Source: Dehalococcoidia bacterium (GTDB lineage Bacteria; Chloroflexota; Dehalococcoidia; UBA2979). Taken from it: a stretch of 64,000 bases of DNA. The translations under genes were made by a program, and so were the position numbers. The notes below the pieces were generated by a model. The model was not told the origin of the DNA. It ran no database searches and was given only the letters and a program-made list of their open reading frames with translations. Below, one piece after another: positions 19,566 to 61,594 of the stretch. Positions within the stretch are counted from its first letter, which is position 1. Each line of letters begins with the position of its first letter. Location of the stretch: contig OZ253555.1 of NCBI GenBank assembly GCA_965262725.1, forward strand, positions 1,536,001 to 1,600,000, read 5' to 3'.

Positions 19566-21052
<1,487 letters not shown>

Positions 21053-21285
21053 AGGGAGTCACGCCGGAACCGAAGGGGCGCACGGTGTACGTGCCCTTAC
21101 CGGCCATCTCCTGTCGACCGGACGTCCATCCACGTGTCTCGCCCGGGTTTCCGGGCGAGGCGGGGACCACCCATTCCCGGGTGGGCGTTCGATACTCATG
21201 GGTCCCGCCCCCCTGCGCGGGGATTCTGCTCGCTATCCAGCTGTTGATGTGCGCCCGGGTAGTGGCATGCCTGCGCACGGGCAAG

Positions 21286-21362
21286 GGGCCATTAGCTCAG
21301 CTGGTTAGAGCGCAGTCCTGATAAGACTGAGGTCCCTGGTTCGAGTCCAGGATGGCCCACCA
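21286..21362 (+). tRNA. tRNA-Ile(GAT)
   Basis: GGGCCAT/ATGGCCC acceptor, anticodon loop CTGATAA, CCA end. Confidence 0.97.
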
Positions 21363-21389
21363 GCCACACCGCCTCGCGCGTGTGGAGTC

Positions 21390-21465
21390 GGGGCCGTAGC
21401 TCAGCTGGTAGAGCGCCGCCTTTGCAAGGCGGATGTCGGGGGTTCGAGTCCCCCCGGCTCCACCA
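21390..21465 (+). tRNA. tRNA-Ala(TGC)
   Basis: GGGGCCG/CGGCTCC acceptor with G3:U70, loop TTTGCAA, CCA end. Confidence 0.97.
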
Positions 21466-21690
21466 TCGCGAGCTACGAGGGCACTACCCACCCTTCATCG
21501 CTGAGTGCGCCGCGTCCTAGCTGGATGCGGCGGGCGTCTGGAGGCCGTCCCTCCGATCCAGCACATTCACAACCGAATACTGCGCAAAGCAGACGAACAT
21601 CGAGAAAGTTCCGGGCACGCGTCCGGGCCCGCTCGTGCCACCGGGAATCGCCCCGGGGCCGGCGGGGATCGAGGCGTGTGCGTGACGAAG

Positions 21691-24633
<2,943 letters not shown>

Positions 24634-24809
24634 CTTCGCCACGCACCGGCGCGATCCCCCCGGGGATGCGCGCCCGGACTCTCTCGGAGTTCGTCGCTCG
24701 CGCAGTATTTGTTGCTGGAGAATCCACGCGCACGGCGCCGCTTGGTGCGGTGCTACACTCACTGGCGTGGACGAGGGCCAGCCGGCCGCCGGCCGGTTGG
24801 CCAGGGCGT

Positions 24810-24884
<75 letters not shown>

Positions 24885-24892
24885 GCCTCTTC

Positions 24893-24922
24893 ACGGGGGC
24901 GGGACACAGGTCCCGCCCCCGT
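24893..24922 (+). terminator. Hairpin after tRNA-fMet (putative terminator)
   Basis: ACGGGGGCGGGAC-ACAG-GTCCCGCCCCCGT is a perfect 13-bp stem with a weak U-tail. Confidence 0.6.
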
Positions 24923-25001
24923 TGTGCGTCTACGGGTGGCGGGGCGCACATGCGGCCCCTGGCCGCTTGCCGGTATGGCCGCCGCCGCGAGATACTGTCA
25001 G

Positions 25002-25120
25002 TCTTGGTGGTTAGAGCGCGACGGCCCCACCCGTTCCCATCCCGAACACGGAAGTGAAACGTCGTAGCGCTGACGATACTCCCCGGGCGACCGGGCGCGG
25101 AAAATAGGCCACCGCCAGGA
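25002..25120 (+). rRNA. rrf: 5S rRNA
   Basis: TCTTGGTGG...CCACCCGTTCCCATCCCGAACACGGAAGTGAA...CCGCCAGGA. Confidence 0.95.
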
Positions 25121-53369: not shown

Positions 53370-55279
53370 GAGCCTGGTGTTTTTGTGGGGCGGTGGGTGC
53401 CTTCTGGAGGCGGGGCATCGTTGCGAGCAGTCACGGAATGCGATCATGTTGGTGATCAGTTCTGTTCGCAGCGAAAGTCTCGCTCATGACACAGGGAGAG
53501 ACCTCCAGGCAGCCCCTTACCTTCTTCAAGAGCACCGCCTACCTCGCTGAGAGGGTCCCCGGGAACTCCATCTGGACCCTCCTTGCCCGCCACGGCGAGC
53601 GCCTCTTCCCCGACGAGATGTTCGCCGACCTCTTCTCCGCTCGCGGCCGCGGGAGCGTTCCGCCACGGGTCGTCGCCACGGTCATGGTGCTGCAGCGTCT
53701 CCACGGCCTGTCCGACCGCGAGGCGGTGGCTGCCTTCGAGTGGGACGCCCGCTGGAAGTTCGCCTGCGGCGGACTCGACTACGACGCGCCGGGCTTCGTG
53801 CACACGGTCCTGGTCTCGATGCGGGCTCGCCTCGCCCGCTCCGAGCGCCCCCGGCGCATCTTCGAGGCCACGCTCGCGGTGGCGCGCGAGGCGAAGCTGC
53901 TCTCTGCTCAGCGTGTGCTGGACTCCACGCCGCTCTACGACGCCGTCGCCACGCAGGACACGGTGACGTTGCTCCGCTCGTCGCTCCGCGGGCTGCTGCG
54001 GGAGGCGGAGAGCCTCGATGCGCCCGGACTCGGGGCCGAGCTGCGGGCGGTGCTGGAGCGCGATGACGACTACCGGGCCGCTGGGAAGCCTCCGTGCGAC
54101 TGGGAGGACCGCGAGGCCGCGCGGGCGCTCATCGACGAGCTGGCGGCCGATGTATCGCGCTGCCTGCGGGTGCTGGAGGGCCGGGAGCTCGACGGGCACG
54201 TCGAGCGGGCGGGCGAGCTCTGTGCGGCCGTGGTGGGGCAGGACCTCGAGCAGGACGACGGCGGGCGCTTCGTGATTGCGCGGCGGGTAGCGAGGGACCG
54301 CATCATCTCGACCGTGGACACCGACGCCCGCCACGGACGCAAGAGCTCCGCGCACGGCTTCGACGGCTACAAGGGCCATCTGGCGGTCGACCCGGAGTCG
54401 GAGCTCATCACCCACACGACGGTGACCGCGGGCAACGTGGCGGACGGGGAGGTTGCGGAGGAGTTGATCACGGACCTGCTGGAGGACGCAGGGGCACACG
54501 ACTTAGCCGCCGACGCGGCTGCGGAGGCGAGCACCGGGACACCGACGGTCTACGGCGATTCGGCCTACGGCTCGGGCGCGTTCCAGGAGGTGCTGGAGCA
54601 GCACGGGGTCGAGTCCCGCTGCCGCACTCAGAGAGCGACCGCGCCGCATCAGCACTTCAGCAAGGAGCGATTCACCATCGACCTGGAGAGGGGCACCGTG
54701 ACCTGCCCCGCGGAGGTGACGGTGCCGATTCGCCGCGCCTCCGACGGCTCGGGAACCGCCTGCTTCCGGGGCGCCTGCAGCCCCTGTCCGCTTCGCGCGC
54801 AGTGCACCACATCGCGCGGGGGACGCACCGTCGCGGTGGGCGTCCACGAGGCCAGTCTCGCGGCCGCCCGGGCACGCCAGGAGACTCCCGGGTGGCTATC
54901 CGGCTACCGCGCGGTCCGCTCGCGAGTCGAACGCAAGGTGGCGCATACGACCCGTCGCAGACACGGGGGCCGCGTCGCCCGTGTCCGGGGCCGTCTCAAG
55001 GTCGACGCCGACCACAATCTGCTCGCCGCCTCCGTCAACCTGGCGCGGTTGGCGGTCCTGGGCCTGCATCACACACCAACCCGGTGGGCGGTCACAGCGC
55101 CCTCGTAGGGGAGACGGAGGCGGGGGCGACTGCGGGAGAGCCTGCGTCCGGGGGTCCCCGGGTCGATGCCGGCCCCGCTCACTCCCCAGCGGCGCAACTC
55201 CCGACCCGCGCCCACCCGACGCTACACTTCCCTCTCACACCGACTGCGGCCGCCGTGACTCGAGTTTGGCACCAGCGTC
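53370..55279 (+). mobile_element. IS1182-family insertion sequence
   Basis: Imperfect terminal IRs GAGCCTGGTG / CACCAGCGTC (8/10), flanked by CTAG direct repeats at 53366-69 and 55280-83. Confidence 0.85.
53486..55108 (+). CDS. IS1182-family transposase
   Basis: DUF772-like N-terminus (GR.S.PP...LQ...GLSDREA), LDST, D.DARHG.K, GYK.H, D..YG, Cys cluster CP...C..CPLR..C and R..VE. Confidence 0.9.
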   Translation: MTQGETSRQPLTFFKSTAYLAERVPGNSIWTLLARHGERLFPDEMFADLFSARGRGSVPPRVVATVMVLQRLHGLSDREAVAAFEWDARWKFACGGLDYDAPGFVHTVLVSMRARLARSERPRRIFEATLAVAREAKLLSAQRVLDSTPLYDAVATQDTVTLLRSSLRGLLREAESLDAPGLGAELRAVLERDDDYRAAGKPPCDWEDREAARALIDELAADVSRCLRVLEGRELDGHVERAGELCAAVVGQDLEQDDGGRFVIARRVARDRIISTVDTDARHGRKSSAHGFDGYKGHLAVDPESELITHTTVTAGNVADGEVAEELITDLLEDAGAHDLAADAAAEASTGTPTVYGDSAYGSGAFQEVLEQHGVESRCRTQRATAPHQHFSKERFTIDLERGTVTCPAEVTVPIRRASDGSGTACFRGACSPCPLRAQCTTSRGGRTVAVGVHEASLAAARARQETPGWLSGYRAVRSRVERKVAHTTRRRHGGRVARVRGRLKVDADHNLLAASVNLARLAVLGLHHTPTRWAVTAPS

Positions 55280-55610
55280 CTAGTGTCCTGAATTGGAAAT
55301 GCGATTGAGATATCCGGTGAGGTTGGTGTGTCCCGAAGTCGAAGGGCGGGTGACGTGATGACGTAACCGGTCTGGAGACATGCTCGTCGTTGCCAGCCGG
55401 TGCGAGTCCGGCACGGGTAACTGTCAGGAGGCCCGTTAGCAGGTCGGCGGCGCGGACGGGAAACGGTCCACGTCGAAGCCCGACGTCAAGAGCCCTATCA
55501 GGGGGAGCAACCAAGCGGTCCGCAGCATCAAGCGAAGCCTGCCTGGGAATGATGCTTACATCTGGCCCCACTTTGATCCTCTGATCTGGCCCCACCCCCG
55601 GGGACCGGGA

Positions 55611-56393
55611 TCAGGTCGTTGGGGCACCTCCTCTCGGGGAGGTCGAGGCCCGGAGCCGGTAGGACTCGGTGCCGGTCTCGATGATATGGGCACGGTAGGT
55701 GAGGCGGTCAACGACGGCCGCGGCGAGACGAGGGTCGGTGAAGATGCGGCCCCACTCGGAGAACGGGGAGTTGGAGGCGACGGCGACCGATGCCCGTTCC
55801 TCGCGCTCGGTCAGGATCTGGAACAGCATTTCGGCACCGCGCGGGTCGAGGTGGACGTACCCGAACTCATCCAGGCAGAGCAGGTCGAGGCGGCCGTAGC
55901 GGGCGACGAGGCGTGAGAGCGCGCGATCATCCGACGCTTCGGCCAGTTCATTCACCAGGGCGGCCGTGGTCATGTACCGCACGCGCAGCCCCAGGTGGCA
56001 GGCGGCCATGCCGAGGCCGATGAGCAGGTGTGACTTCCCGGTGCCGCTGTCACCGAGCAGGACGACGGGCTCGCCCCTTTCGACCCAGTCGCAGCGCTCC
56101 AGCGTGGCGAGCGCCGGCGCGTCGACTGTCGGCGCCGCCTCGAGGTCGAAGTCGGCGAGGTACTTGAAACGCGGGAACCGCGCCTCGACGATACGGCGCT
56201 GACGGCGCCGCTCCTCACGGTCATCGCGTTCGGCTCCCAGCACTTCGGCGAGATAGCCCAGATGGGTGATCCGGTCTCGGACCGCGGCTTCGGCGAGCGG
56301 GAGCGCCTGCTTCCTGACGGTGGGGAGACGGAGCTCGCGGCAGATCGCCTCGATTGTCAGCTCCGCGGCCTGGTCGGTGAGGGGTGCTGTCAT
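55611..56393 (-). CDS. istB: IS21 helper ATPase IstB
   Basis: LRLP, ARFP, GDSGTGKSHL, LDEFGY, SN.PFSEW and DRL. Confidence 0.95.
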   Translation of the reverse strand: MTAPLTDQAAELTIEAICRELRLPTVRKQALPLAEAAVRDRITHLGYLAEVLGAERDDREERRRQRRIVEARFPRFKYLADFDLEAAPTVDAPALATLERCDWVERGEPVVLLGDSGTGKSHLLIGLGMAACHLGLRVRYMTTAALVNELAEASDDRALSRLVARYGRLDLLCLDEFGYVHLDPRGAEMLFQILTEREERASVAVASNSPFSEWGRIFTDPRLAAAVVDRLTYRAHIIETGTESYRLRASTSPRGGAPTT

Positions 56394-56409
56394 CGGGTGC
56401 CTCCTGTGG

Positions 56410-58044
56410 TCAGCGTGCCGTCGACACCGCAGCGGTGACGGCGGTTGTGGTGGTGTGCGACGCGTTCTCGGCAGACCGCGGAGCGCGGGAGCGCCCGCCC
56501 GGCGACGTGCCGGGCCATCGGGAATCACCCGAGAGCAGCGCATCGTAGCCATCGAGGAGCGGGGCAGGTCGGTCGTAGCGCTCCAGGTGCGGTCTCTCGA
56601 CGGCGGCGTCTGGTGGCCTGCGGTCGGCGAGACGGCGCGCCTCGATGGCGACCAGTTCGGGGTTCACCGACTGGATCCTGTTGACCGTCCCGAGCGCGGC
56701 GTGCACCGCCGTGAAGGGAAGATGGCGATGCAGGAGCAGGACCTCGATGTACGCCTGCGTGCCCGCGCGGTCGCCGAGCTTGCGGCGGGCGCGGTCCCAG
56801 AAGCGCTGATGCTCGGCTGTGACGTGTCCCTTCGCACGCGCCTGCTGGAGCGCCACCGAGCCCGGGACCGCCCCGGGCTTGCGCGCGAGCACCTCCAGAT
56901 AGTGGTCGAGCAGCAGGACCTCTGCTCCGGTGCGGGCGCTGCGCTCGTGGTGGGCGACTTCACGCCCCTCGGCCCACACGGTCAGGCTGTTCCCGGACAG
57001 CCGCACGTCCAGCTTCCGGCCTGCATAGGCCGCCGGGACCGAGTAGCGGGAGCTACGCACGGCGATGCGCGCCTTGCGGTCGACCTTCGCGCGCAGCGGG
57101 ATTGACGGGTCGAAGCGCTCCGCCGGAAGCGGACGCAGCGAGGCCTTCTCGTTCTCTCCCATCTCGCCGACGGTGGCGAGGCGGCTCTCGATGTGCCGGG
57201 CGTCGTCGGTGCGGTCCGCCTCCCGCACTCGTTCGTTCAGCTCGCCGAGGGTCGCCACCTTCGGGACCGGCACGAAGTGCCGCCGGCGGAAGCGGCCGAC
57301 CTCGCCCTCCACACCGCCCTTCTCGTGCGCGCCCTCGATGCCGGGCTCACAGAAGAAGCTGTCGAAGCCGTAATGCGAGCGGAGCGCGATGAAGCGCTCG
57401 GTCTGCAGGCGCTCGCGTCCCTGCAGCACGGTGGTGACGGCCGCCGTCAGATTGTCGTAGCGGATGCGCCGCGGCACTCCGCCGAGCCGCTCGAAGGCGA
57501 CCACGTGCCCCTCGAGCAGAGACTCCTGGCCCTCGCCGACGAAGCAGACGTGCGCCGCCCGCCCCGAATGCGAGAGCCGCATCACGAACATCGCCAGCCG
57601 GGTCTCGACGCCCTCCAGCCACACCGTCACCGTGCCGAAGTCGACCTCCGCCTCCTCGCCGGGAGGATGGACCTGCGGGATCGTCACAACCGCGCGCCCG
57701 CCCTGGATCTCGCGACGCAGGCGCGCGACGCAGGCGCGGACCGTGGGCTCGGCCACCGTCGCCCCGTGTTCGTCGACGAGGCGCTCCCAGATGCGCCGGG
57801 CCGTGTGCCGCTGCTTGCGCGGCGCGCTGAGGTCGTCCACGAGCCAGCCCCGGATGACCGAGACGTACGGCCCGAGCTTCGGGGCCACGCGGGTCGCCTG
57901 CTTGCGTTCCGGGGGTATCGCCGACCCAAGAGCCTGCCGCACCGTGCGCCGGTGCACGCCATGCCGGCGTCCCAGCTCATGGATCGACAGCTCCTCCTCC
58001 CTCGCCATCCGTCGGATAGACTCGAACAGCTCCACTCTCGACAC
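56410..58044 (-). CDS. istA: IS21 transposase IstA
   Basis: HTH (HRRTVR.AL), PRKQRHTA.RI, EVDFG, YDN, KG.VEG.V and YSVP. Confidence 0.95.
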   Translation of the reverse strand: MSRVELFESIRRMAREEELSIHELGRRHGVHRRTVRQALGSAIPPERKQATRVAPKLGPYVSVIRGWLVDDLSAPRKQRHTARRIWERLVDEHGATVAEPTVRACVARLRREIQGGRAVVTIPQVHPPGEEAEVDFGTVTVWLEGVETRLAMFVMRLSHSGRAAHVCFVGEGQESLLEGHVVAFERLGGVPRRIRYDNLTAAVTTVLQGRERLQTERFIALRSHYGFDSFFCEPGIEGAHEKGGVEGEVGRFRRRHFVPVPKVATLGELNERVREADRTDDARHIESRLATVGEMGENEKASLRPLPAERFDPSIPLRAKVDRKARIAVRSSRYSVPAAYAGRKLDVRLSGNSLTVWAEGREVAHHERSARTGAEVLLLDHYLEVLARKPGAVPGSVALQQARAKGHVTAEHQRFWDRARRKLGDRAGTQAYIEVLLLHRHLPFTAVHAALGTVNRIQSVNPELVAIEARRLADRRPPDAAVERPHLERYDRPAPLLDGYDALLSGDSRWPGTSPGGRSRAPRSAENASHTTTTAVTAAVSTAR

Positions 58045-58530
58045 ACTCCTCTTCCCTCGCTCCGGGAGTCATGCAGTCACCCGAGCGTAGGTCCTGGATG
58101 GGTCGGGGGTGGGGCCAATTCAAAGGATCAAAACGGCTCCAGGTGGGGCCAATTCAGAGCATCATTCCCACCTGCCGCGTCGTTAACGGATAGTGGAGGA
58201 GCCGAGCCCGGCAATTCAGGGCGAAGGCCATGGACGAGGTGAAGATCCTGAATGCGCGTTGCGCTGCAGCCTCAAGGAACCTCCCGGCGTAAGGGGCGTG
58301 GAACGTTTGGAAGGTAGCGACGGGAACGGGAGAAGCCCTCCCCGGCCCGGCACCCTGCGAGATGGTGTCGGAGCGAGGTGCCCTATAACCGGTCAAAGCC
58401 GGGAAGTGGGCAGCTAGCCGGAAGGGTGACGGAGGGGGTCGTAGTACCGCTTGAGCCGGACGGACAACACAACCGCCGGTGATGGGAAGGACCCCTGCTT
58501 TGCTCACGCGTGGGGAGTAGGGATGAATCG

Positions 58531-60730
58531 GTGAGTGCCCAAGCGGCTAACTCCATCCAAGACAAGGTCCGAACACTACAACGCACGCTTTACCGGGCGG
58601 CCAAGGCCGACCCCAATAGACGCTTTCATGCGCTCTACGACAAGGTTTATCGCAGAGACATTCTGGAGCGCGCGTGGGAGCAGGTGCGTCGCAATCGCGG
58701 CGCAGCCGGTATCGACGGCGTCACGCTCGCCGAGGTCGAGCGCTACGGCGTGGAGCGCCTGCTGGATGAACTGGCCACGGAACTGAAGGAGGGAAGATAC
58801 CGGGTGCAGCCGAGCCGCCGGGTCTGGATACCCAAGCCCGGTCGGTCGGAAGAGCGCCCGCTCTCGATTCCTTCGGTCCGCGACCGCATCGTGCAGGCGT
58901 CGCTGAAGCTCGTGACGGAGCCGGTCTTCGAGGCCGACTTCCTGCCATGCAGCTTCGGCTTCCGCCCGAAGCGTTCGGCCCATGACGCCCTGCAGGTCCT
59001 CATTGACGAGGCGTGGCGGGGCAGGCGGTGGGTAGTGGAGACGGACATCGCCTCGTGTTTCGAGTCGATACCGCGTGCGTCCGGAAGTCGAAGGGGTGGT
59101 GACGTGATGACGTGACCGGTCCGGAGACATGCTCGTTGCTGCCAGCCGGTGAGAGTCCGGCACGGGTAACTGTCAGGAGGCCCGTTAGCAGGTCGGCGGC
59201 GTGGACGGGAAACGGTCTGCGTCGAAGCCCGACGTCAAGAGCCCTATGAGGGGGAGCAAACGTGCGGTCCGCAGCATGACGCGAAGTCTGCCGCGCCGTG
59301 AGACTCGCCTGTCTATTGACAGGACCAAGGAGGAGCCGAGCCCGGGTGGTCAGGGCGAAGGCCATGGACGAGGTGAAGATCCTGGAATGCAGCCTCAAGA
59401 AACCTCCCGGCGTATGGGACGTGGAACGTACGGAAGGTAGCGACGGGAACCGGAGAAGCCCTCCCCGGCCCGGCACCCTGTGAGAGGGCGTCGGAGCGAG
59501 GCGTCCTATAACCGGTCAGAGCCGGGAAGTGGACAGCCAGCCGGAAGGGTGGCGGAGGGGGTCGTAGTACCGCTGGAGCCGGACGGACAACATAACCGCC
59601 GGTGATGGGAAGGACCCCTACTTTGTCCGTGCATGTTGCTGGGGGTGTGGACTGGTGAGTGCCCCTCGGGGCTAGCAACCACTTGGTAGGGTTCGAGGCT
59701 CTCCGCACATGCTGTACCGGCTGGCCAAGGCACGACCCACGTTGTGGGGAGCGCTGCATGCCATCTGGTGAAGGGCATCGGTGAGCCGGATGAGGGAGAA
59801 CCTCACGTCCGGTTCGATGTGGCAGGGGCTGGAGACGGACGCTGCTATGGCCGTGGAGTTGGGCACCACCGGGAAACCGGCTTGGAACTGATGCGCCACC
59901 GCCTACGGCTCGCACCGCGCCAGCCCCTGACCCTACACGACCGTCTGATGACGGCCGTCGAGGAACGGATATGCGACCGCAATCTCCTGAAGCTGGTACG
60001 GGCGATGCTGCGTGCCGGTGTGATGGAGTCGGGGGTCGTGCAGCACAGCGCGACGGGTACGCCGCAGGGCGGGGTGATGTCCCCGCTGCTGGCCAATGTC
60101 TACCTGCACCGGTTGGACCGGGACTGGGAGGCGAAGGGTGATGGCGTGCTGGTGCGCTATGCGGATGACCTCGTGGTGCTCTGCCGGAGCCGGGAGGAAG
60201 CGGAGCGGGCGTTGGCCCTGCTGCGTGACCTGCTGGGTGAGCTCGGACTGGAGCTCAAGGCGGAGAAGACGCGCATCGTGCACCTGCGGGAGGGAGGCGA
60301 GGGGCTGGAGTTCCTCGGCTTCGAGCATCGCTGGGTACGTGCGAAGCGCAACAAGAATATCCAGTTCCTCGCACGCTGGCCCTCACGGCGAGCGATGCAG
60401 CGGGCGCGGGACCGCATCCGTGAAATCACGGCGCGGTTGCGTCTGCTGCTGAGTCCCCGGCAGGTCGTGGAGGAAGTCAATCGCTACCTCCGCGGCTGGA
60501 TGAGCTACTTCCGCTACGGCAACTCGGCGAGGGCGTTCGACGTCCTGCACTGGTTTGCCATGTGGAGACTCAAACTCTGGCTGGGGAAGCGGTTGCGTTG
60601 GCGGCGACGCCATCGCGGGCACCCGTTTCCCGTCGCCGACCGTCTGGGGCTCATCTCGCTAGCTGGACAGCGCGTCGTGGCACCACGGCCATATCGACCG
60701 TGGCGGGGCACCCCGCATGCCGCCCGGTGA
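58531..60730 (+). CDS. ltrA: Group II intron reverse transcriptase/maturase, join(58531..59074,59937..60730), 445 aa, no En domain
   Basis: GAAGIDG, IPKP...RPL.IP..RDRIVQ, SFGFRP, DI..CF..IPH across the junction, GTPQGG..SPLL.N.YL, YADD, FLGF and X-domain GW..YF. Confidence 0.92.
59075..59936 (+). ncRNA. Inner ORF-less group II intron (862 nt) inserted in the RT gene
   Basis: 5' GTGCG, colinear and highly similar to the outer intron RNA, domain V at 59783-815, 3' CCCTGACCCTAC. Removal gives ATA CCG C|AC GAC CGT (IPHDR) in frame. Confidence 0.93.
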
Positions 60731-61070
60731 AGGGCATCGGTGAGCCGGATGAGGGAAAACCTCACGTCCGGTTCGAGGCGGCAGGGGCTGGAGACGGACG
60801 ATGCTACGGCTGTGGAGATGGGCGCCACCGGGAAACCGGCCTGGCAATATGCGCCACCGCCTACGGCTCGCACCGCGCCAGCCCCTGACCCTACTCAAGG
60901 ATCTGGTCCGCGGACTTGTGCCAGATGAAGCGCCTCCGGTGCTCGTTTCCAGTTGCGACCCAAGCCTCCACTGAGCGGACCAGGCCTGCGAGGCTCGGTG
61001 CGATTGTTTTCAGCATTTGCAACTCGGGACACTAGGAGGCCTCCCGCGGTCGGCCGGCCCGGAAACCAGA

Positions 61071-61093
61071 ACGGGCGCCCCGAGGGCGCCCGT
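61071..61093 (-). terminator. Intrinsic terminator-like hairpin downstream of the ferredoxin
   Basis: ACGGGCGCCC-CGA-GGGCGCCCGT, followed by TCTGGTTT on the minus strand. Confidence 0.6.
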
Positions 61094-61117
61094 CAGGGAT
61101 GCGGCCCTGCGCCCGGG

Positions 61118-61393
61118 CTAGCCGGGGACCTTCGCGCGCGCGGTCTCGCGGTCCTGGAACCAGAGCACGTCGATCTCGGTGAAGATCGCCTGATCCTCCG
61201 GCACGTCGTCCTCGGCGTAGATCGCGGAGACGGGGCAGGCCGGCTCGCAGGCGCCGCAGTCAATGCACTCGTCGGGATCGATGTAGAGCTTGCGGTCGAC
61301 GCCCTCCTCGAAGTGGATGCAGTCGACCGGGCAGACGTCCACGCAGGACTGGTCGAGGACATCGATGCAGGGCTGCGTGATGACGTAGGTCAT
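61118..61393 (-). CDS. fdxA: Ferredoxin (FdxA-type, 7/8Fe)
   Basis: MTYVI..PC.D..D.SCV.VCPVDCI ... [25 protein letters not shown]. Confidence 0.93.
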
Positions 61394-61594
61394 GTGCTGG
61401 CGTGCTCCCTCCGCCTCCGGCTGCCTGTGGCCTTCGTCGTCGACCGCGGCGCCCGCCCGGCGCGCGGCCGGTCGACGCGTCGCGTCGAGTCTAGGCTCGC
61501 CTCCCGGTGGCGGCAAGGTGGCATCGCGGGTCGCGATCAAGCGGCGTCGAGGGGGTGGCGAGGCACCGCCGGGGATGCTTGTTCGGGCGCCTGA

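Follow-up and report, generated by a model that had tools for sequence, protein, structure and literature searches.

Two nested group II introns in a Dehalococcoidia genome share one ribozyme scaffold and differ in exon-binding sites that fit their own targets

Introduction

How can two sister group II introns, one of which lies inside the other, occupy different homing sites in the same genome? This question is raised by a stretch of 64,000 nucleotides from a Dehalococcoidia bacterium (OZ253555.1, 1,536,001 to 1,600,000; the window), of which the part from 54900 to 61500 was read here. This region is a stack of nested mobile elements, i.e., a remnant of an IS630-type element containing an outer group II intron (O), which in turn contains an IS21-family element and a reverse transcriptase (RT) gene that is split by an inner intron (I) without an open reading frame (ORF). 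A first-pass annotation had read the two introns as a case of RNA-guided target divergence on one scaffold, and this reading is right. The locus as a whole is very probably best explained by nested elements, targeting guided by exon-binding sites (EBS), an RT supplied in trans, and insertion at replication forks. Coordinates are positions in the window unless marked "genome."

Results

Exon-binding sites of O and I pair with different targets

The annotation had taken short segments of O (55326 to 60894) and I (59075 to 59936), both on the plus strand, to be exon-binding sites that differ between the introns, each fitting its own target. This identification was borne out, and the letters and coordinates of all twelve segments were exact when each was checked by script. 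In O, EBS2 CGGATA (58187 to 58192) forms six Watson-Crick pairs with the intron-binding site (IBS) TATCCG (55311 to 55316), EBS1 CAATT (58212 to 58216), located in an Id3-like hairpin loop, forms five pairs with GGTTG (55321 to 55325), two of them G-U, and EBS3 A 58292 pairs with T 60895, the first base of the 3' exon. In I, EBS2 GACTCG (59302 to 59307) pairs with CGAGTC (59061 to 59066), EBS1 GTGGT (59346 to 59350; core, 59346 to 59349) with ACCGC (59070 to 59074), and EBS3 T 59415 with A 59937, which is likewise the first 3'-exon base. A sister intron in the same genome, type T, has ACCC/GGGT, GAGTCC/GGACTC (at -14 to -9), and A:T at the same columns, and its targets end in GGACTCGATCGGGT, followed by T. 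Exon recognition is of the IIB type, with EBS1-IBS1, EBS2-IBS2, and a single EBS3-IBS3 pair. The frame around EBS1, GAGCCCGG-5 nt-CAGGGCGAAGG, is the same in O and I, as had been claimed.

The covariation across the intron family that the annotation had suggested looking for was found at the same columns. The alignment comprised RT relatives with 61 to 91% identity in Dehalococcoidia and actinobacterial metagenome-assembled genomes (MAGs), distant ribozymes from a sample of 401 genomes of the phylum, with matches, mostly partial, in 17 of the 401 (G000 included), and six actinobacterial plasmid loci; the EBS columns were fixed by O, and the 3' ends of the relatives were located separately. The EBS1 test excluded locus L051 because of a 1-nt ambiguity in its 5' boundary, four loci (L031, L041, L046, and L055) have no 5' exon, and L069 and L070, which share the site of L068, were counted with it once. 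EBS1 and IBS1 pair in 58 of 65 cells in 13 lineages, compared with a mean of 1.97 of 5 for noncognate combinations, and 0 of 100000 permutations reached the observed value. Four further plasmid lineages pair in 4 of 5 positions each, which extends the covariation at the same five columns to 17 lineages. Watson-Crick pairing of EBS3 with IBS3 is seen in 11 of 12 lineages, a value attained by 12 of 100000 permutations, and in 15 of 16 when four more lineages are included, the pair types being A:T, T:A, and G:C. Hand-picked EBS2 hexamers pair in 52 of 66 cells; because they had been chosen by eye, we relied on a longest-run test that was unsupervised and whose observed value was reached by 25 of 20000 permutations. 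The agreement is far beyond chance.

In one relative (L059 of genome G128), a 9-nt string that immediately precedes the 5' end of the intron is repeated where the 3' exon begins. The alignment may thus misplace the 5' boundary of this intron, which might account for its poor EBS1 score.

For EBS2 of O, another interpretation deserves consideration, i.e., that CGGATA/TATCCG is a chance match and that O uses only EBS1 and EBS3 or some other EBS2. IBS2 of O lies at -15 to -10, compared with -14 to -9 in I and T, and EBS2 of O is backed by a single target type, since the 12 O copies and 13 empty sites of the genome represent one homologous target and provide no independent site. The 18-nt stretch in which EBS2 of I and T resides is absent from O, and the short-loop relative L033 pairs only in the register -19 to -14 with two G-U pairs; according to our own arithmetic, the chance of a perfect hexamer between an 18-nt window and a 12-nt exon window is about 0.02. 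On the other hand, the match of O shares its junction strand with EBS2 of the other two introns and is within 1 nt of their register, TATCCG is kept in 24 of 25 target copies, and EBS2 pairing is general across the family. We therefore regard a chance match as decidedly unlikely and retain CGGATA as EBS2 of O.

Structure of the guide region

Folding, which had been proposed as a check of the annotation, placed all three segments in suitable elements, both in the alignment fold and in the centroid fold of I. A hairpin that also contains an internal loop presents EBS1 as its 9-nt loop, EBS2 is single-stranded and located directly past a conserved stem and ahead of a small hairpin, and two helices flank the 3-nt internal loop (UA-N) in which EBS3 is found. 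In IIB introns, such an arrangement would be expected for the Id3 and coordination loops and the EBS2 junction. The claim that the segments of O and I occupy homologous positions holds for EBS1 and EBS3, which share alignment columns, but is loose for EBS2: an 18-nt stretch including the small hairpin is missing from O as well as from L033 and L031, and CGGATA of O is therefore found in the same junction as GACTCG of I but not in the same columns.

Target sites of I and the protein side of specificity

I occupies 13 distinct sites, which together form a logo of its target. Positions -4 to -1 are C, Y, R, and C, and all 52 of 52 cells pair with GUGG (59346 to 59349); pairing extends to -5 in 9 of 13 sites. 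At -15 to -11, the bases T, C, G, A/G, and G (TCGAG motif) are found in 10, 8, 10, 12, and 11 of the 13 sites, respectively, and the IBS2 motif is shifted by 1 to 2 nt in three sites. Position +1 is A in 8/13 and G in 2/13 sites, and G at +4 in 3/13 indicates no preference.

The annotation had gone on to ascribe retargeting to a swap of the RNA guide alone and to propose a relaxed specificity on the protein side. Both proposals conflict with the T at -15, which recurs in 10 of the 13 I sites and in the targets of O and T and cannot be paired by the EBS2 of the annotation: the first is a poor fit to a site logo in which this base recurs outside the EBS2 pairing, and recurrence across the targets of all three introns runs against the second. 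For RmInt1, the passages of PMC4075523 covered here describe T -15 as the distal position that matters most and attribute it to the protein. The EBS2a-IBS2a interaction of IIB1 and IIB2 introns, an extra determinant just upstream of IBS2 (Monachello et al. 2021, PMC8643678, in the part covered), could correspond here to C -14 or T -15. The rule for EcI5 fits 4 of 9 lineages by eye, and a sixth EBS2 pair fits about as many.

Anatomy and copies of the inner intron

I is 862 nt long, starts with GTGCG, and ends with CCCTAC. The domain I to IV model RF02003 (Rfam) matches it at 59143 to 59279 with 102.8 bits, and the score of the domain V/VI model RF00029 on I was below the gathering cutoff. Its domains V (about 59782 to 59816) and VI fold together with z = -4.6, and the bulged A (59930) is located 7 nt from the end. 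Of the ORF, I retains the beginning and a final few dozen bases and is without a reading frame. The ribozymes of O and I are 87 to 92% identical, and intron T is about 80% identical to I. I lies precisely within O, and the host ORF becomes continuous on its removal; the two thus form a twintron. Relatives keep a continuous RT ORF across the I site, and a contig of run X8, which may be DNA or RNA, joins 59073/4 to 59936/7 and skips exactly 862 nt, which together confirm the boundaries of I. An RNA library (X19) contains an identical 263-nt piece of I and another (X20) a piece of 179 nt, with no junction crossed by either; this expression check used assembled contigs only, and bins without cover are uninformative.

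The genome contains 28 copies of I with 100% identity, i.e., 15 in RT ORFs (12 O and 3 T), 12 ectopic copies, and 1 tandem copy. The insertion affects the same codon block in O and T RT genes. Calls for the gene context of the 12 ectopic sites (stop-to-stop frames, GC3) were mixed between sense and antisense.

A few individual copies are worth recording. Two head-to-tail I copies are present in one O RT gene (genome 549500-551223; L012/L019); the 5' exon of the second is the 3' end of the first, and CTAC fits the C-Y-R-C pattern of IBS1, with no match for IBS2. The ectopic copy at genome 1524130 resides in the RT ORF of the unrelated intron family with 38% RT identity at a nonhomologous place, and an I copy within a T intron (genome 733701-736486) is itself interrupted by an element encoding a 39%-identical RT. 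O-like introns of a Dehalococcoidia MAG carry a different group II intron (RF02005, about 163 bits) just past the RT ORF, near domain V; these insertions (L031 4850-5074, L033 7261-7485, and L036 4845-5069) represent another kind of twintron.

The RT gene

The first part of the RT ORF (58510 to 59074, plus strand) comprises codons 1 to 188 plus 1 nt and ends in the homing site of I, and the second part (59937 to 60730, plus strand) carries the remainder of RVT_1, which includes YADD, together with the GIIM maturase domain and the stop codon. In silico removal of 59075 to 59936 yields a continuous ORF of 452 amino acids (aa) with CFESIP/HDRLM at the junction, and the ligated RNA would read GATACCGC/ACGACCG. 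Pfam matches were RVT_1 (2e-21; residues 107 to 188 in the first ORF part) and GIIM (2.8e-14), YADD being located at residue 263. The Pfam scan detected no endonuclease family, and the ORF stops 38 residues past GIIM; the protein is hence an intron-encoded protein (IEP) that contains RT and X/maturase domains and is devoid of a DNA-binding (D)/endonuclease (En) HNH region, and its best solved relatives are the En-less IIC RTs 7uim and 6ar1. The class D motif LX3AX3PXLF[V/A]HW (PMC4615759, in the part covered) and a looser core were absent from the 452-aa spliced RT in a regular-expression search, and a literature search on the Rfam family name for class assignment found nothing.

O-type and T-type RTs are 72% identical over the 264-aa part past the intron site and 76 to 89% in the preceding pieces. 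A third group II RT family of about 38% identity is present in the same genome. The candidates for serving the ORF-less I in trans are the O-type RT, the T-type RT, and also the 38% family; one RT for both O and I is plausible. All 15 O/T RT genes are occupied by I, every tblastn match breaking at residue 188/189, whereas the third family has at least 12 uninterrupted matches covering residues 35 to 389, which would suit an alternative in which I is served by this unrelated family, or splices by itself while the twintron spreads as one unit with O. The location of I at the same place in all 12 O copies is what would be expected if O and I were copied whole. However, group II RTs usually bind their own domain IV, and I keeps an O/T-like start of domain IV and ORF, the 5' side of its domain IV looking more T-like than O-like. 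Moreover, the 12 ectopic copies and the insertions in RT genes of both the O and the T type indicate that I also moves independently. We consider this alternative unlikely and favor an O- or T-type RT as the helper of I.

Orientation of the insertions on the chromosome

The gene dnaA is located at genome 477809-479134, and the cumulative GC skew has its minimum at about 0.35 Mb and its maximum at about 2.5 Mb. With these reference points, the lagging-strand template carries every ectopic I copy (12 of 12; p = 0.0005). Among the targets of O, 10 of 12 occupied sites are favorably oriented, compared with 5 of 13 empty sites (Fisher p = 0.041). The insertions hence show the lagging-strand bias of an endonuclease-less IEP. 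Because the RT is devoid of an endonuclease domain, insertion into single-stranded DNA of the fork would be expected.

The copies of I might alternatively stem from DNA-level events such as recombination, duplication, or an assembly artifact rather than from retromobility, as their 100% identity and the poor IBS2 at the internal junction of the tandem pair could suggest. We attach hardly any probability to this explanation: the 12 ectopic copies have unrelated flanks and precise ends, their flanks fit EBS1, EBS2, and EBS3, all 12 are oriented in keeping with their replichore, and contigs from independent runs show the flanks of two ectopic sites (loose ends at 59937 and 60894). Retromobility of I is the reading that we follow below.

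The outer intron, its target, and the IS21 passenger

O starts with GTGTG, ends with CCCTAC, and measures 2074 nt without its two passengers. RF02003 matches at 55394 to 55530 (95.3 bits) and RF00029 at 60740 to 60807 (41.5 bits). Like I, O thus has the features of a group II ribozyme, i.e., 5' GUGYG, 3' AY, and the domain consensus, and both introns end in CTAC. The part of O comprising domain V and a long domain VI (60740 to 60894, plus strand) is homologous to the folded segment of I and has its bulged A at 60888, 7 nt from the 3' end. In both introns, domain VI is unusually long (about 115 to 120 nt) with an inner branched insert (60776 to 60894 in O; 59817 to 59936 in I); relatives range from about 55 to 125 nt.

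All 12 copies of O in the genome reside in one repeated target, of which 13 uninterrupted copies exist, one of them 100% identical over 189 nt across the junction; these uninterrupted copies fix the boundaries of O. Together, the two exons make up a 189-nt MITE-like sequence derived from an IS630-type element: the 5' exon (55279 to 55325, plus strand), which holds IBS2 and IBS1, supplies its left 47 nt, and the 3' exon (60895 to 61036, plus strand), which starts with IBS3, supplies its right 142 nt, on the minus strand of which the C terminus of the transposase is encoded. A full-length relative of the target has a 380-aa ORF with DDE_3 (1.2e-23) and several helix-turn-helix (HTH) families and belongs to the IS630 family. 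As its target, O uses the antisense strand of the last 25 codons in an IS630-type (DDE_3) transposase gene and also in the 189-nt derivative of that element.

A clean O copy (genome 1183435-1186370) differs from that of the window only by a 2627-bp insertion in domain I of the latter (55544 to 58170, minus strand). This insertion has 13-nt terminal inverted repeats and a 6-bp target duplication, CCTGCC (55538 to 55543 and 58171 to 58176), and encodes a Mu-transposase-like protein (56410 to 58044) and an IstB ATPase (55611 to 56552). Pfam assigned IstB_IS21 (1e-60), and the large ORF matched Mu-transpos_C_2 only and no IstA-specific model. With IstB ATPase, transposase, inverted repeats, and target duplication, the insertion belongs to the IS21 family. 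Its IstB gives rise to about 16 identical weak matches to a DnaA model (37.1 bits) genome-wide, which suggests that the element is present in about 16 genome copies, two of them within other intron copies.

Two other features of the window may be mentioned. A 540-aa DDE transposase ORF (53486 to 55108, plus strand; DDE_Tnp_1_6, DDE_Tnp_1, and DUF772) lies directly upstream of the IS630-derived element and adds to this cluster of mobile elements, and an rRNA operon (19566 to 25120) comprises 16S, two tRNAs, 23S, one tRNA, and 5S.

Discussion

A probable history of the nested elements

The locus was very probably built in three steps. An RT-encoding IIB-like intron, O, would have homed into the antisense strand of an IS630-type element, its RT gene would then have gained the 862-nt ORF-less sister I at a conserved RT-motif codon block (FESIP/HD), and an IS21 element would later have broken domain I of the O copy in the window. 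Each intron would find its DNA target via domain I, with EBS1 forming about 4 to 5 bp with the last exon bases, EBS2 about 5 to 6 bp around -14 to -9, and EBS3 1 bp with +1, and the differing EBS segments of O, I, and T on one ribozyme frame would direct them to different homing sites. For its own copying, I would depend on an RT acting in trans, most likely that of the O or T type, whose gene it splits, and this RT could be produced only once I has been spliced out. As an RT without an endonuclease domain, it would probably act by insertion into the single-stranded lagging-strand template at replication forks, with the nascent strand as the primer.

Several points weigh against this explanation. 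While mobilization in trans is inferred from the 28 identical copies of I, the EBS-matched flanks, and the lack of an ORF, the splicing of I, the acting RT, and the priming at forks are likewise features that we infer from sequence. The 100% identity of the 28 copies could partly reflect assembly polishing. The X8 contig, placed at 90% similarity and extending only 30 nt to one side, may represent an I-free allele of a relative rather than spliced RNA, and the contigs of the RNA libraries X19 and X20 may be DNA carry-over. The interruption of 15 of 15 O/T RT genes leaves the source of the first RT molecules unexplained. With respect to the pairings, EBS1 reaches only 3/5 in L035 and L038, EBS2 1/6 in L044 and 3/6 in L042, and the single miss of EBS3 is L046 with T:C. 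Since the single-sequence fold of domain I of I is no better than that of shuffles (z = 0.32), the structural case rests on the alignment fold and the exon covariation. Finally, the terminus is only roughly placed, the skew being flat from 1.9 to 2.6 Mb.

Comparison with known systems

The comparisons below refer to the passages of the cited papers that were covered here. A very close parallel in kind is offered by the TeI3/TeI4 introns of Thermosynechococcus elongatus, in which ORF-less introns arose from an ORF-containing one by ORF deletion and six families are distinguished by EBS1, EBS2, and EBS3 (Mohr, Ghanem and Lambowitz 2010, PMC2882425). Seven identical ORF-less introns have been described there, five of them sharing a site in the RT ORF of related introns, with others in an insertion sequence, and poorly matched sites were interpreted as retrotranspositions (PMC2882425). 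The likeness therefore comprises both families with divergent EBS and targets and twintrons with identical ORF-less copies at a conserved RT-ORF site, and EBS-guided target divergence and ORF-less introns in helper RT genes have thus already been described (PMC2882425). In contrast to the RT of 452 aa without En reported here, the T. elongatus IEPs have 561 aa with D and En (PMC2882425). The inner intron of T. elongatus lies between two start codons, which allows an RT to be made without splicing, whereas I splits the RT domain at 188/189, and two T. elongatus introns have continuous ORFs, whereas 15 of 15 O/T RT genes are occupied here (PMC2882425). The host phylum differs as well.

RmInt1 of Sinorhizobium, a class D intron, resembles the present introns in its En-less IEP, its use of EBS1, EBS2, and EBS3 with IBS2 at about -9 to -13, its marked preference for T at -15, the insertion into the lagging-strand template, the IS630-kind target, and the presence of related introns with diverged targets in one genome (PMC4075523, PMC4615759, PMC8914252). 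It differs in the C-terminal motif of class D and a preference for G at +4, neither of which was found here (PMC4075523, PMC4615759), and the passages covered mention no ORF-less hyperparasite in its RT gene (PMC4075523, PMC4615759). The nucleotide matches to 32 plasmid records included none to a Sinorhizobium plasmid. In Methanosarcina acetivorans, introns likewise home site-specifically into other group II introns, which thereby serve as a perpetual homing site, but this system is archaeal and comprises up to five nested levels (Zimmerly and Semper 2015, PMC4424553).

Implications

EBS-guided targeting is not new and forms the basis of targetrons, and the present findings do not change the established knowledge of how group II introns choose their targets. 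What sets this genome apart is a large and clean natural data set, a set of helper RT genes that are all interrupted within the RT domain, and a strict bias for one template strand. The 28 identical I copies with their 13 sites, together with two sister introns, provide an assay-free target-site logo from one genome that shows the obligatory pairing from -4 to -1, the wobble and register tolerance of IBS2, and the recurrent unpaired T at -15. The 862-nt intron and the 452-aa En-less RT could serve as a small RmInt1-like scaffold for gene targeting.

The occupation of every helper RT gene in mid-domain raises the question of how a parasite-of-parasite system stays active. As a tentative proposal, which we hold to be somewhat less likely true than false, I may be an obligate hyperparasite whose homing site, a codon block under protein constraint, lies in the RT domain of two related lineages of introns and which has saturated its helpers, with all 15 RT genes occupied, the supply of RT gated by the splicing of I, and a shared contact at T -15. 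If so, the T at -15 across three targets would mark one contact kept by a common protein, and splicing of I would control how far all three introns can move, in a self-limiting circuit. Even so, I would still reach new sites on the lagging-strand template.

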